This document shows positions 15,251 to 41,379 of a stretch of 64,000 nt of DNA, piece by piece; within the stretch, counting starts at the first letter, position 1, and each line of letters starts with the position of its first letter. Source of the DNA: Glaucostegus cemiculus. Its lineage: Eukaryota. The translations under genes and the position numbers were made by a program. Location of the stretch: positions 13,392,001 through 13,456,000 of the forward strand of contig CDPCPM010000033.1 of NCBI GenBank assembly GCA_976551045.1. The letters are read 5' to 3'. The notes below the pieces were generated by a model. It was not told where the DNA came from, searched no databases, and was given only the letters and a program-made list of their open reading frames with translations.

Positions 15251-15950
15251 TATCAGGAATCAGTGTCAGAAACTCAGAAGTGGTTGGATTGTTCCACAGA
15301 AACATATTGAAAGCAACCTTGCTGTATAGTTTAGCTCTTTAACTCAAGCATTTGATTTTTACTTTCAATGGGGACAAAATGGCTTCTGCGCAAACATCAT
15401 ACCAAAGAAACCATTGAGATAAAATAATTAGAAACACAAAAAAGCACAAAACATATCACTATTGCTGCCTAAACCACAGTACTCAAGAACTAGAAGTTGC
15501 CTACTGCATGTGACATGTCACAAACTACAGCAGATTGAGCTGTGCACAACATAATTAATCTAAAATGGCTTTTACTCTTCCCAAACAACATGTGGTAGAG
15601 TAAAACACTGAAAACTTCCCTTTTTCCACAAATCTCAAACATATAAAAATAAATAATGTAATATACAAAGACAATACATATGAAAATACTGTTCCCATTG
15701 AGTTGGACTACACTTACATACACAGCATGCCCACATGTACATGATGTTTATTGTCATTCATTCTCATACAGAAAATGGCAGTGCACTATCAGAATGTTTT
15801 GATATTTCTAAACCTGATATGGAGATACATGATAAAATGCATTCATAACACATTTTGTGAAATATTTCCAGGATCAAATTGTCAGCTTGTCCGTGCAATA
15901 CTTAGAATTAATAGATTTGCAACACTGTATAGTACTTCCCAGTCAAATAG

Positions 15951-16094
15951 CTAATGTTCCTCTGAATAAACACCACCACTTAGGTAGCCATTTGTCCCAT
16001 TTGTGGTGCTGCTGTGTCCACTTTTTGCAGCTGATGGTGTTGATTCTTCTTCATCAGAGCTGGACTCAATGTCACTTCGGTCATCTTTTGATAC
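15951..16094 (-). CDS. CERS6: Ceramide synthase 6, last coding exon (VSKDDRSDIESSSDEEESTPSAAKSGHSSTTNGTNGYLSGGVYSEEH*)
   Basis: ccccag acceptor, phase 0, TAG stop at 15951-15953. DxRSDxE motif, acidic serine cluster and TNGTNGYL resemble the vertebrate CERS6 C-terminus. Confidence 0.93.
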   Translation of the reverse strand, partial: VSKDDRSDIESSSDEEESTPSAAKSGHSSTTNGTNGYLSGGVYSEEH

Positions 16095-16249
16095 CTGGGG
16101 AATTAAGTGAACCATTAAAATGAAGAAGACAACTTTTGTCATGAAAATTATTAAAAAAGAAACAAAAACACAAATTAATATGGCAATTGAAATGAATAGG
16201 CTGGGTCAAAAACCTAATGGTGTAAAATGGAGGTAAGATGCACCATGAG

Positions 16250-16830
16250 TCTTTATAGCATGGAAGGAGGCCATTTGGCCCATTGTGCATGCACCAGCAA
16301 AAACAGTCTGGTCAGTGCCACTCCCCTGTACTGTCCTTGTGGCCCTTCAATGTTATCTGCTTCAAGTATCTAGTTAATTCCCTATTGAAAACAATGACAA
16401 AATCTGCTTCAACCACCTTTTCAGGGCACAATTTCAGATAAAACTACTTGCTGCTTGAAAATGTTTTTCCTCGTGTCACACCTGATCTTGTAGACAAATA
16501 CTTAAAACTGATGACCTCTGGATCTAGGCCCTTTCAAAAGTAGGAAGAGATTTTTTTTCTATTCACCTCATCTAAGTCCTTCATAATTTTGAACAGCTCC
16601 TTTATATAATAGAAACCTCAACCTTCTCTGCTCCAATCAGGACAATACCAGATCCTCCATTCCATCCAGGTAACTCATCCCTAGCACCATGCTGCTAATT
16701 TATTTCTGCACCCTCTCTATGGCTTTTATATACAAACATGGTGTGAGGACTAATGGAAGTAATATTCTAGTTTTTCCAGTAATATTCTGGTTATGGCCAA
16801 ACCAGCATTTTCTGGAGTTTCAACATAATT
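16250..16830 (-). mobile_element. Old CR1 3' fragment
   Basis: Tail tatagcatggaaggaggccatttggcccatt and degraded RT C-terminus. Confidence 0.65.
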
Positions 16831-17789
16831 ATTAAGAAACCCGATTTCACCCTTAATTGATGTGCTGAATGGATGGAAGAACTAGAGCTAAAGCCCAATT
16901 TGGCGACACTCAAAAATTTGTTAGCATATACTGGACCCTGGCTGCTTCACTCCATAGCTACCTTCCATACACTTACTGACCTCCTTTCTGTTCCCTCCTC
17001 CTCTCCACCCTTTCTCTGCATTTTAAAAATGCTTCATCTCTAAGTTTTTGGTTTAATCCTGTTTCTCTCTCATGGATGTTGTCTGATCTGCTGATTATTT
17101 CTAACATTTTGGATTTTTTTTATGGCTACACTTCCTGAATGCTTCTCCTGCCTCCTTGCCTCCCTAGCAGACCCTTATGCTATTTTGCATTTAACTGCAT
17201 TTAAATTGCATTGGTAGAAATTTAACAGTAATTATTCAGGTTATCAACAATACCTTAACTGTACTTTTTATGTACACAATATGAGATAAACAAGTCACAG
17301 GGAAAAAACACTTAAATTATTTTAGCAGAAAAATACTGAACATGTTTGAATAATGTTTCTCTTAATATTAATGCAGTGGTCACCCGCTATTTTTAATTAT
17401 TGCAACAAGAGGAATGTTGTCATTGTCTCTAAGATATAATTTATGAAGAATGAATTTGTAGAAGGAATTTTTAATGCAATCATTAAAGCCAATGCAAGAG
17501 GTAGAAGGTGGGACATTTGATTGCAAGGATATTGTAAAAAGGACAAAGAGCAGAACTGCCTGAAAAGAGTAGCACAGTTTCCAGGGTTGAAAGACTCCCT
17601 TCAATGCCATTCAATTCTTAAAGAATAAATTTAAATTGAAGTGAATAGAGAGTAAGACTGAGCTGGGCATAAAATGGACATTTTAATTTTCTATTAGGAA
17701 ATTTGGTGAAAATAATGTCCCTTGTCAATTCTTTAGCCACTTCAGAGGCAGTCGATACCTGTTAGAGGAAATACTTCAAATACTTCCTC

Positions 17790-18265
17790 AACAATGACTC
17801 TGTCACAAGCACCTTTGACTCCATCCCACAGCAACCTATCCAGACCAGACCTGCCGCTCCTCCTGACCAACAAGAGATCAAAAGGGCATATCCCAACTAA
17901 AATATAACAAGGTCTGAGGAGCAGAGCATATCCTGGCTGAAATCCTAAAATTCAGCAGTGAATAACTTCAATTATAGATGCAGAGTTTAATTCTCCATAT
18001 CTGGAAAGCGGAGGATATACCAGGGAACCTCAAGTCCACGTAACGGGAGTACACAGAAACCCTCCACAAGTGGTGGAAGGAGTGGGCCATTTCACGGACT
18101 ACCCATCTACTCCCCCATTCCCCCCATCCCCATTCTAGCACCTCCAAGCGCATCTGTGGAAGAGACTGCAGCTCCCACATTAGCCTTATCAGCCCCCTCA
18201 GAACTCTCAAAATCGGTTTGGAAGCAAGTCATCCTCCATCCCAAAGGACTGGCTAAGGAGAAGTT
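17790..18265 (+). mobile_element. RTE-clade LINE remnant (3' end)
   Basis: tgtggaagagactgcagctcccacattagccttatcagc (CGRDCSSHIxLIS-like C-terminal motif) and gcaagtcatcctc..ggactggctaaggagaag tail. Confidence 0.55.
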
Positions 18266-18926
18266 AATTATCTACATCAGGCTCCTGTGACTGCATTTGT
18301 CTACAATAGTTTATGCTTCAGTTTCCAAACAAAAACTTCTAAATTCTAGGGAGTAACAACAAAATATTTTCATGGAAAATAAAACATTGCCTATGCAGAA
18401 TAATAGTGAACATGTAGAACCGTTTAATGATTATATGATATGGTTATACTTTTGGGATAGTCCTTCATCAAAACTCCCAACATTCTGTATTCAAGAGTAA
18501 CCATTTTTTAAAATATATTTTGAAATCTCCAACATTAATTACTGATAATCTGCAAATAACCAATTCAACTCACAGTGTACCACACTGCAATATCCTAGCA
18601 ATTTGCATAACGTTTACTGAATATACCCTGAGGCTCCCAATATCTTCCGAGCAGTGGCACTGTTAGCAATTAAAGAAGCAATCAAAATCTAAACTGCAGA
18701 AGCAGAGCTTTTAATTGTGATATTGTTGTCAGTGTAGGGTCACTTGAAGCCTTCATACTGATAAGAATCCTTCATCAACCCACTGTTCTAAAAATCTGAG
18801 AATAAATTGCATTTGAAATGAAATGGGGGTTTCATGGGGTTATTAATTTAAATCGCATCATGATTCAGGACAAATAATGAAAGTATTATTTCAACAGACT
18901 GCAAAAGTTTAACCAGTAAAACTTAC

Positions 18927-18950
18927 ATGCAAAGGGTTCCACTTCCCAGC
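18927..18950 (-). CDS. CERS6: CERS6 24-nt frame-preserving microexon (AGKWNPLH)
   Basis: Minus strand: ..cttgtgcacacctggaag|GCT GGG AAG TGG AAC CCT TTG CAT|gtaagt. The peptide matches the alternative 8-aa insert I recall from the long mammalian CERS6 isoform. Confidence 0.9.
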
Positions 18951-20849
18951 CTTCCAGGTGTGCACAAGGAAGAGTTCAAATACATAGAATGAGAAAAAAA
19001 ATACTAAGTGACATCCTGCTGTTCTAAATATATTCACTGTTAATGAACTACTAATGTACTATTATTGCCTGTTGAGGTGCTGCGACCTTTCTACAGCCCT
19101 GGCACTCTTTGGGCAGGAACAGGACCAGCTATAGAACCACTAAAGATATTATTGCTATTCAGTTAACCATGTCTACGCACCTTGGTCTGTAACATTTAAC
19201 ACCCATAATTGTCTCATGTGCAATGCATTTCTTTTGCTCTTTATTAGCAGTTGTACCTTCAGGCAGTTAGGATGCATATTCTTTAAACTACTCTAGCGCA
19301 ACACTTCCTCTTTGAAGAGCTTACCCAAAACCTCGCATTGTGACCAAGATTTTGTTTTTCTGATAATGTGCTTTGGACTGGTTTACCATGTTAACGGCTC
19401 TATACAAATTCAAGTTATTTTTTTTCCCTTTGTTGTTGAGGTGTAGTTAGTCAGAAATGGGGTTCTTTGGCTCTTAATTTCCCTCTAATTTTAGCCTGTG
19501 TAAGAGGAATGAATCCAAACAGAAGTTGTCAACAACATAGCTTGGTTGTGTGATGCCAACAGTTTTTGGAATGTGAAGGAACCACATGTTACAATTAGTG
19601 TCACTTAAACTTAAATTATAGTTTGGGCAACTCACTATTTTGTTAATATATATATATTGCCTTGATCTCCCTCTAACATTGCCAGGAAGAGTAATTAGCA
19701 GCTGGGTTTTCTCACTAAATTTTTGATGTAGCTGCACTTTAAGATATAGATCATATTTAAAACATAAGCAATAACCAAGTGCTAAAAACATTACAATATT
19801 GGAAGAGCCTAATATTTAAAAAATGAGAAAGAACATTTAGTTTAACTCTTTTTGTAGCATCTCTTTCCTTTGAAGGATAAACCATTACCAAAGTAAGACA
19901 AGTGAAGAGAATGGGGGCAAAGAGGAATGTTTGCTATGGGAAAATATGGCACTGATATGTACAGGGAAGGAGCGGACAAGAATGGTTACTGGGAAGGATG
20001 GGCAGTAATTTGGGGGAAGGGGGTGGTGGTAGTGGTGGTTGGGGAGAGTGAAATCCCAGAACATGGTATCTGGGCAAATTTAATATCAGGAACAACTTTT
20101 AATTTCTTTATTTTTGTTTCTAGTTTGGCAGATTGGTCAACTGTTGGATAGGAAAGCAAATGGTGGAAGACCACAAGCAGGGACCACATGGATGTTTCAT
20201 TCAGGGTTTGTCGGCAGGGACTCTAAGCATGGCAAGTGGCTTCAGATTTGTAATTCATTTGAAATGTTCCTGTTTGCTAGGGTGCCCATCCATTCAGGTA
20301 ACATGGTATGAATCAGATTTTGTTCTACTGCACAGTCATGACTGCATATGTTGGTTTTCAAATAACTGGAATGAACCAAATTATAAAGGTGGCAACCTTT
20401 TTGAATGTAAGGGCATCTATCTGTGTATCAGTGTGTGTCAACATATTGCAACACTATTGGAAAGAGAGTTTTGTGGTGTGTCTGCTTTATAACAAGGTAC
20501 TCAATCTATTACGGATGCTTGAAGATTCAACACGTACAAGGGTTAATTGATCTTCCTTGCAAATAAACTACTTACTCTTAAATATATTTATGCATTAGGG
20601 ATTATTTTCCTTTGAGCTTGGACATTGATGCCATTGCTTAGCAAGTTTTATGTGAGTTTGTTCAGTTTTTGTAAGGTTTTCCTGTGGTTACTCAAGTAGA
20701 ATTTTGTTTGTCTCAGGTTCCCATGTTTAGCACAGTAAGACACAAGGACAAAGGTATCGACTGGCAATTTGAATAAAAGCAGGACAACACTTTCTCCAAC
20801 TGGCTATATCAGGAGCCTTGGAATGTTGCAGGTAAATGAGTGTAAATAA

Positions 20850-22340
20850 AATAAAAATCATGGGTGATTTCATCCACCAATATTACTTGGACCAATGAGA
20901 TAGGTAAAGGGGATAAAGGGTTGGAGTTCCCAGACGATGTAAAACTCCTTTCTCACTCAATATGCAAAAGTCCAATAAAGAAAGATTTGATATTGGATCT
21001 AGTAATTGGGAATGAACCAGAGCAGATACAAAATGTAGAAAATAGGTGAAACCAAGGCAATAGCGACCACATTATACTGGGCATATTGCTCTTGCTTTGT
21101 AATAAAAGATATAATGAAAACCAGGCCAAAAACTTGGAGGATATCTACTTTTGAATGACTGAGAATTAATCTTTGTCAACAATATTGGCAAGCAACAATG
21201 GTAAACTTTGAGAATTATTCAACAGAGTGCATGATCCCTATATGAATAAAAACAAAAGGGAACATTTGAGGATAAAGAAAGAGGCACAAATTAAGTGCAC
21301 AGACAATGGAGGAATGCATGATAAAACAGAATATTAAGGGATTGGGAAAGTAATAAAAAAATGGAGGTACAGGGGAACAATTAAATTGTTAAGGAACATT
21401 ACACAAAATAATAATGATTTACAGGGTCATCAATGATAAAGGAATGTTAGCATAGGCATAATGCCATTAAATGATAGGACAATACAATGGATAAATACAG
21501 GGAGATAGCAGAAATATTCATTCATTTACTTTGTTTTGGTAATTACCATAGAGATAGAACAGTTGGATGAAACATTGGATGATGTGATGACTAACGAGCA
21601 AGTGAATTTAAAATAGAAAGAGGGTATATATTAAATAAGCTAATCAAACCCTAGGAGGATAAAACTCCTTGTCTGGATGGATTGCATCCATGCATTTTAA
21701 AAGAATCTAGAGATAAGATAGCAAAAGCATCACTACACATGTTTAATAATTCATCAGAATAAGGTATAATGCCTGAAGGCTGACAGACAACTACTACAAT
21801 ACCTATAATTATGAGGGATAGAAAACGACCAGGGAATTAAAGACTAGTTGGCTTAATGCAGGGAAAGTAATGGAATACCTACTAAAGAGAATAGGAAAAT
21901 ATCTAGAAACTAAAAGTATAATAATGAATAGTCAACATAGATTTTGGAAGGGAAGTTCTTGCTTGACTAACCTTACTGAATTTTTTAAAGAGTTAACAGA
22001 GATAGTAGACGGTGATCTGGATGTAATTTTTCAGGATTTTCAAGATGTATTTGATAAAATTGTCCACTAATGAACAAGATCAGAGAATCAGGGGAAAAGT
22101 AGTGCAAGCTTACTTCAGGACAGAAAGCGGAGAGAGGCTGTGAAGGTGAGTGATGTTATTCCGCAGAATCAATGTTGGAACTGTTGCTGTCAGAAATTAT
22201 CATTAATAGTTTAGACTTTGGTATTAAAAGCATTATTATTAAGTTTGCCAGTGATACTACATTAGGGAGATGGTTGGACAGTCAATACCGAGGAATGCAA
22301 CAAATTACATTCATAACCTTCTATAATGGACAATTAATTG
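20850..22340 (+). mobile_element. Ancient, A-rich degraded CR1 ORF2
   Basis: ILDLVIGNEPEQI, SQHRFWKGSSCLTNLTEFF, DFQDVFDKIVH and aagtttgccagtgatac (KFAxD). Confidence 0.8.
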
Positions 22341-26130: not shown

Positions 26131-26287
26131 CTTTCCTTTAGCAATAGCTTTACAAGTGATCCTGATGATCAGATATGACCAGAAGCTATGCAGCAGCTGA
26201 AGCAACAAAAGGAGCAAGTTGAAGACCCACCATGATGGATAAGGACCAACAATCTCCCAACTTTCAAACAAGGTGGTATTTAATATC
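26131..26287 (-). CDS. CERS6: CERS6 exon, 157 nt ((W)[52 protein letters not shown])
   Basis: tttgtttcag acceptor and gtatgt donor. The first G completes the TG|G Trp codon from the previous exon. TLC-domain sequence. Confidence 0.95.
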
Positions 26288-38823: not shown

Positions 38824-38930
38824 CATATTGGGTAAAGACCAAGCCTTGTACTTATGAAGACCAAGCTAAACATTACAAACAGAAGGTCACACAGTCTTTG
38901 ACATTTGGCATAGTTTGCCATCTTAGCTGC
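38824..38930 (-). CDS. CERS6: CERS6 exon, 107 nt ([36 protein letters not shown])
   Basis: taatttgcag acceptor and gtgagt donor. Phase 0 start, ends in TG (phase 2). Confidence 0.95.
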
Positions 38931-41250: not shown

Positions 41251-41379
41251 CTCTAACAGAAAGTCAGATGCATCATGAAGGCACATGACCAGTGTTCCTA
41301 CTCGCACCATGTTGTTGACATATGAAAATGTTATAAGCGCTATTGTTGCAATGTGATGCAAAAACATAATGGCAAAGTC
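41251..41379 (-). CDS. CERS6: CERS6 exon, 129 nt, Lag1p motif ([43 protein letters not shown])
   Basis: tcttgttttag acceptor and gtaagg donor, phase 0/0. Catalytic HH and LHDxSD of ceramide synthases. Confidence 0.96.

Follow-up and report, generated by a model that had tools for sequence, protein, structure and literature searches.

The window, a stretch of 64,000 nucleotides from Glaucostegus cemiculus, holds part of a ceramide synthase 6 (CERS6) gene on its minus strand, with a 24-nt microexon between exon 9 and the last coding exon. The features discussed below are, in window coordinates:

41251..41379, minus strand: CERS6 exon 7, 129 nt, encoding the catalytic His-His
38824..38930, minus strand: CERS6 exon 8, 107 nt
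26131..26287, minus strand: CERS6 exon 9, 157 nt, encoding the TM6-TM7 loop plus TM7 as far as K334 in human numbering
18951..19003, minus strand: acceptor region of the microexon, with its AG, a purine-interrupted last 14 nt, TGC at 18964-18962, a set-back pyrimidine tract and about 50 nt free of AG
18927..18950, minus strand: CERS6 microexon, coding exon 10 of 11, 24 nt, phase 0, AGKWNPLH, flanked by AG and GT
18921..18926, minus strand: microexon donor, a strong consensus-type GT whose G completes TGCATG
18818..18880, minus strand: five YCAY motifs, 47-109 nt into the downstream intron, as a group within background
15951..16094 to the stop, minus strand: CERS6 last coding exon, encoding VSK, DxRSDxE and a serine/acidic cluster, with RNA reads on the exon and 3' UTR

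Alignment and phylogeny support the gene as a CERS6 ortholog, as originally predicted. Exon 9 aligns to human CerS6 residues 283-334 and finds its best matches in shark and ray CERS6, and the window protein is 97% identical to sevengill shark CERS6 over 178 residues. In a 34-row tree with lamprey and hagfish as the sole outgroup, the window peptide falls within a 15-row CERS6 clade (100/98) and its cartilaginous subclade (99/96), apart from CERS5. The catalytic His-His and DxRSDxE are both present in the translations. Three collinear NOSTRIN-like matches lie on the same strand about 50-60 kb downstream on contig C33; they are weak (3/34 matches, E 4e-5 to 5e-4), and the expectation of NOSTRIN as a neighbour is taken from fused CERS6-Nostrin models in other vertebrates. 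A search of the same genome with manta CERS6 protein adds six more exons upstream on C33, which makes the microexon exon 10 of 11, and recovers separate ceramide synthase paralogs on C20, C213, C15, C351 and, weakly, C157.

Other features of the window were observed in passing. Intron 6 of CERS6 contains long open frames at about 47700-43700 (minus strand) with similar text at both ends, which we take to resemble the gag and reverse transcriptase/integrase of an LTR retrotransposon. The open frames at 11774-10890 (minus strand) and 59500-57600 resemble LINE-type reverse transcriptase fragments. A search of the two introns flanking the microexon gave a 42-nt candidate microexon at 20998.

Sequence comparison confirms the 24-nt stretch as a real CERS6 exon in a cartilaginous fish. 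Read on the minus strand it gives AGKWNPLH, its length lies inside the 3-27 nt microexon range, and exon 9 joins the last exon in frame with the microexon present or absent. A shark CERS6 protein matches it by tblastn at 11/11 residues between exons 9 and 11; such a match at the right place puts the microexon itself far beyond chance. The same octapeptide is annotated in many sharks, rays and mammals, and corresponds to Ala335-His342 of the long human isoform. The original prediction of a frame-preserving exon carrying the long-isoform peptide thus stands. An in-frame AG inside the microexon (18943-18942, minus strand) could define a 15-nt WNPLH exon like the CERS5 exon described below; this form appears in 0/59 inserts among 120 listed homologs.

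RNA reads over 15400-18900, a span that stops short of the microexon, number 41, 11, 40 and 0 records in four runs, with no splice joints or loose ends in that span. The records come from three runs with the same species label and lie nearly all on the last exon and UTR; first mates are mostly plus, which fits minus-strand RNA in common stranded libraries. Between 15418 and 16038 the reads differ from the assembly at 10 sites and carry a 6-nt insertion behind 15813, which suggests that the runs derive from another individual, population or close species.

The exon is conserved from cartilaginous fish to mammals, as was predicted, and both isoforms are on record. Among 120 listed homologs (327 found), 59 carry the eight-residue insert, 39 lack it (a few of these being CERS5 or hagfish proteins) and 22 are uninformative (21 without the tail and one otherwise broken). 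Position 1 varies across 106 fetched inserts (A 66, V 21, T 10, S 7, I 2), while the remainder is nearly fixed (G2 in 105, K/R3 in 106, L7 in 102, H8 in 99); W, N and P are uniform, W and P having been selection criteria. The insert is present in 27/33 cartilaginous-fish CERS6 proteins and absent from 6/33, three unnamed proteins having been assigned by sequence. Little skate has CERS6 forms of 389 and 381 residues, each found in RefSeq and in Logan contigs; insert-less CERS6 is represented by four Logan contigs from this species and by a smooth-hound model. The mouse X1 protein P0124 carries AGKWNPLH, and proteins with and without the insert are on record from sharks to mammals. Skate CERS6 (P0136, P0184-P0187) reads DDQSDIE, Q replacing the R of the otherwise family-defining DxRSDxE motif. 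On these records the exon is likely optional in this fish, a cassette. The novelty implied at the outset is low: annotations throughout the jawed vertebrates already include the exon, and its peptide and mouse regulation are known as well.

The acceptor is atypical, and all the splicing motifs that were predicted are present. A TGC occupies -14 to -12, between the pyrimidine tract and the AG; pyrimidines make up 78% of positions -50 to -15 versus 50% of -14 to -3; and the next AG upstream is 53 nt off. A TGC starting at -20 to -6 is found at 24% of all minus-strand AG and is of low specificity. The TGCATG at the exon/donor junction takes five letters from the end of the exon and its final G from the donor, and is the sole such hexamer in 18700-19100. 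The YCAY motifs start at 18880, 18863, 18837, 18826 and 18821. Gene-body windows contain that many YCAY per 110 nt (at least five) in 8% of cases, and three within 17 nt in 0.5%, by a cut picked post hoc. The UGC and YCAY motifs alone are statistically weak and common by chance. Predicted RNA structure is no stronger than expected, 0/3 folds beating shuffles (z 1.33, 1.22, -0.05).

Two of the three regulators originally proposed from these motifs are not supported. RBFOX-activated exons carry TGCATG free in the downstream intron; here the hexamer overlaps the exon end and donor, and none lies free within 18700-19100. Protein binding at such a junction is expected to hinder the donor, not help it. 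The most fitting view of the hexamer is that it follows incidentally from Leu-His codons joined to GT; it cannot persist where the last residue is N or D (7/106 inserts). NOVA-activated exons carry a downstream YCAY cluster above background; the density here is within background and no supporting paper was found in the literature searched, though NOVA may act on the microexon.

The proposed dependence on SRRM3/4 is borne out for the 24-nt mouse Cers6 exon. Humans have two CERS6 transcripts, the short one without Ala335-His342; their functional difference is not known, and both are kept in mammals and chicken (PMC6315813). The human microexon is a translated one, and RNA as well as ribosome data show it changing between glia and glioma (PMC7156646). 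A 24-nt mouse Lass6 exon, MmuEX0026173, is included in wild-type cortex and hippocampus at PSI 93.8, 88.0, 88.6 and 88.7, and in SRRM4 knockout at 79.2, 79.3, 71.2 and 67.7, a drop of 15.4 PSI points in knockout brain (p 0.0096; PMC4387716, table S2). The same exon is labelled 'eMICdep', or SRRM3/4-dependent (PMC8797185, table S2); in the available part of that eMIC table CERS6 occurs once, in the mouse sheet. By gene and length, MmuEX0026173 is taken to be the counterpart of the window exon. A UGC lies between branch point and AG in 74-79% of SRRM3/4 microexons, where it helps inclusion but is not required (bioRxiv 2024.09.17.613571). The searched part of the supplements holds no cers6 row for a zebrafish microexon screen (PMC12626420) and no CERS6 row for a retinal microexon study (PMC9303857); none occurs in the searched supplements of PMC7156646 or PMC11142752.

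A similar candidate exon lies in the paralogous CERS5 gene. Over 105 residues the C20 paralog shares 95-98% identity with ray and sawfish CERS5 and 83-87% with shark CERS5, as would be expected if the source is a batoid, which it probably is. Listing the donor sites in its last intron gave the following candidate, which a search of that intron with the shark peptide WNILL had missed:

C20:2991543-2991557 (L006:1543-1557), plus strand: candidate CERS5 microexon, 15 nt, WDLLF, with its donor at L006:1558 and an AG 15 nt upstream

The candidate and its donor match the CERS6 exon and donor at 25/30 letters, a score that 1/300 shuffled queries reach in the same 7.6 kb. When anchored on the donor, 18/24 upstream letters match the CERS6 exon, versus at most 14 at the other 535 donor-like sites; because anchoring removes the splice consensus from the comparison, the likeness exceeds that consensus. 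Both exons occupy the same intron in the same phase, the candidate's AG corresponds to the in-frame AG inside the CERS6 microexon, and the next 60 nt are also weakly alike (46/2000 shuffles). Read-through translation of the candidate matches the tail of a sawfish CERS5 model at 27/29 residues, counted by eye, which indicates that the sawfish model uses the candidate acceptor. The candidate has no TGC in the 60 nt upstream, one YCAY, and two intronic TGCATG about 80 and 140 nt downstream; with these different motifs, its regulation may differ from that of CERS6. The last introns of the paralogs on C213, C15 and C351 hold no matching exon, their best 10-14/24 letters being background. The C213 gene (C213:362850-390841, minus strand) encodes another ceramide synthase; it ends in a CERS5/6-type tail, VSKDERSDVESS, and its 1.9-kb last intron lacks the microexon.

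CERS5-side inserts occur in other lineages. A chimaera protein carries SVKWDLCL in its X1 form and lacks it in X2, and a catshark protein carries WNILL; NCBI names these proteins CERS6 or CERS6-like, and the tree groups them with CERS5 (91/91). The insert is present in 2/15 listed cartilaginous CERS5 cluster members. In frogs, 6/15 listed cluster members of CERS5 carry VGTGKCHPLP, and one frog CERS6 has LGTGKWNPLH. Teleost CERS5 models (P0351, P0392, P0394, P0400, P0306) show alternative tails after exon 9 that may be the same exon in other frames. Rodent CERS5 models contain an extra exon that ends AGQFHPLH in one frame, with other models using shifted frames of the same DNA. Decoding two reading frames together recovers that DNA in 3/5 peptide pairs: there is one solution, 18/24 letters identical to the window exon, and 0/500 shuffled peptides are compatible. 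For an unnamed contig protein of rodent type, the implied exon is 107 nt long, with 17-18/24 identity in 2/4 pairs; overall, 4/9 pairs, drawn from different species, give no solution. The implied 107 nt is the length of a mouse Cers5 exon labelled 'Neural' (PMC8797185). Human CERS5 exon 10 follows a 157-nt exon, is 103 nt long and is included in normal brain; its inclusion alters the reading frame and costs the protein four phosphoserines, and C16-ceramide is not restored by this form (PMC11142752).

At the protein level, the insert falls where it was predicted to, after TM7 has ended on the cytosolic side and three residues ahead of the DxRSDxE/phosphoserine motif. AlphaFold models of both skate isoforms have pLDDT <50 from residue 334 on; a short helix at 342-348 in the long-isoform model was rejected as not reliable at this pLDDT. 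The DxRSDxE motif influences how CerS2 and CerS6 interact and the ceramide made in vivo, while activity in vitro does not depend on it (PMC8789539; PMC9292091), and CK2 sites lie in or beside it (PMC8789539; PMC9292091; PMC13201657; PMC11919693). In the CerS6 structure, DxRSDxE is unmodelled and points away from the dimer interface, and the TM6-TM7 loop closes the acyl tunnel across the membrane from the insert (PMC11919693). The available text of PMC11742613 has nothing on the CERS6 insert. The DxRSDxE study numbers the motif 338-344, in keeping with the short form, and the construct used for cryo-EM agrees with the long one, so that papers mix the two CERS6 isoforms.

These observations suggest a route from splicing to ceramide. 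By the mouse data and the anatomy of the site, the weak purine-interrupted acceptor would be skipped by default. As in mouse, SRRM3/4 would act through the UGC between pyrimidine tract and AG, promote early spliceosome assembly and so bring about inclusion. The insert would then lengthen the disordered segment that connects TM7, at its cytosolic end, with the DxRSDxE/CK2-serine cluster, its Trp likely resting at the membrane surface; a longer link could alter partner or dimer contacts or tail phosphorylation, and with them the cellular output of C16-ceramide, with acyl-chain choice expected to be unchanged. In outline, exon 10 is probably a cassette exon whose inclusion in the neurons of this fish would depend on SRRM3/4, with eight residues that tune the regulatory tail and not the active site. 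The protein part is more tentative: that the insert lengthens or anchors the tail, tuning contacts or phosphorylation and C16-ceramide while sparing acyl choice, is plausible at somewhat less than even confidence.

Several other readings bear on the exon and its peptide. The exon could be real but constitutive or broadly included in this fish, with neural restriction arising later or in particular lineages. The high share of cartilaginous-fish CERS6 proteins with the exon (27/33), the strong consensus donor and the PSI of 68-79 that persists in mouse SRRM4-knockout brain point this way; yet gene models tend towards the longest form, versions without the exon are known from little skate (RefSeq and the four Logan contigs) and the smooth-hound model, the acceptor is of the weak UGC type and the mouse exon depends on SRRM3/4, all of which leave constitutive use unlikely. 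That the stretch is intronic DNA resembling an exon by chance would agree with the want of a junction read in this species (reads over 15400-18900), but the 11/11 match in the right place and phase and the identical peptide in so many sharks, rays and mammals make this vanishingly improbable. For the peptide, the disordered context would suit a linear motif, and W-N-P is found in 59/59 inserts among the 120 listed homologs, none of which has a different insert; the eight residues might therefore be a W-N-P docking motif for a neuron-specific partner and not a tail-tuning spacer. No such partner is known, however, and the CERS5 counterparts keep position and rough length while varying at just these residues (WDL, WNI, CHP), so docking is rather unlikely, though the least improbable of these alternatives. 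The insert might instead be near-neutral for the protein, its conservation reflecting splice-signal constraint in a very short exon. Variation at the first residue agrees with this, as do the unchanged in-vitro activity on deletion of the adjacent motif, the activity of long and short constructs alike (separate papers, the isoform of each being read from its numbering) and the retention of the letters in rodent CERS5, which reads them in another frame. Against near-neutrality, the peptide has persisted from chimaera-grade lineages through to mammals, most of its changes being conservative, and the exon is translated and regulated; near-neutrality is slightly less probable even than constitutive use.

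The CERS5 look-alike, too, might be unrelated, a product of chance, splice-signal convergence or later gene conversion. The comparison spans 24-30 nt, part of it splice consensus; the CERS5/6-like gene on C213 and two other paralogs lack the exon; 0/7 lamprey and hagfish proteins (protein models only) have an insert; 4/9 two-frame decodings fail; the insert appears in few of the listed cartilaginous CERS5 members (2/15); and the CERS5 side of the tree is supported at 91/91 only. Set against this are the donor-anchored match (18/24 versus at most 14 at 535 other sites), the shared intron and phase, and the similar inserts found from chimaera, catshark and sawfish to frogs and rodents, a spread that one late conversion could not produce. 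Lack of relationship is accordingly quite improbable, more so than near-neutrality of the insert.

A look-alike exon at the same spot in CERS5 implies that the switch likely predates the CERS5/CERS6 split. Judged on sequence, the CERS6 microexon probably shares its descent with the alternative exon that CERS5 has in the corresponding intron, both going back to one microexon older than that split. On the CERS5 side the exon measures 15 nt in sharks and rays, 24 nt in chimaera, 30 nt in frogs and 103-107 nt in mammals. A fuller scenario, which we favour with modest confidence, places one neural microexon in the last intron of an ancestral CERS5/6 gene before the gnathostome duplication; CERS6 would have frozen an eight-residue, tail-preserving SRRM3/4 target, while the acceptor of CERS5 drifted until the exon shifted the frame and, in brain, removed the DxRSDxE/phosphoserine tail. 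The link between the two exons is probably unreported: no paper uniting CERS5, CERS6 and a microexon was found in the literature searched, though subscription papers, VastDB or bioRxiv supplements may state it.

If the scenario is true, both C16-ceramide synthases are switched in neurons by one ancient element with opposite effects, and control of neuronal C16-ceramide passes from CERS5 to a retuned CERS6. The TM7-to-tail junction would then be a long-standing site of control over neuronal ceramide. CERS6 is a drug target, its two isoforms are not known to have been compared, and skipping of CERS5 exon 10 raises C16-ceramide in glioblastoma; the proposed link offers a testable case of a microexon becoming a frameshift switch by acceptor drift.

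The closest known system is the mammalian exon itself. Mouse Cers6 MmuEX0026173 and human Ala335-His342 (392 versus 384 aa) share gene, 24-nt length, position and peptide with the window exon; the window copy differs in belonging to a cartilaginous fish, whereas regulation has been measured only in mouse and human. Like SRRM3/4 (eMIC) microexons, the window exon is shorter than 28 nt and frame-preserving, with a UGC before the AG, a long AG-free zone and a strong donor; within this class, the knockout effect on mouse Cers6 is moderate (-15 PSI). The human CerS6 cryo-EM structures 8QZ6, 8QZ7 and 9EOT contain the residues to which exon 9 aligns (283-334). Their construct fits the long isoform and ends at Asp350, without the last 42 residues, and the models stop at 330 or 334, which leaves the insert unmodelled (PMC11919693). 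Exon 10 of mammalian CERS5 (103 nt in human; MmuEX0026165, 107 nt, in mouse) lies in the same intron, after a 157-nt exon, and is included in brain. The mouse Cers5 exon is listed as neural but not eMIC-dependent, and the human exon is affected by PTBP1 and SRSF3 in glioma cells. CERS5 exon 10 is longer and non-triplet and strips the phosphoserine tail, whereas the CERS6 exon keeps it.
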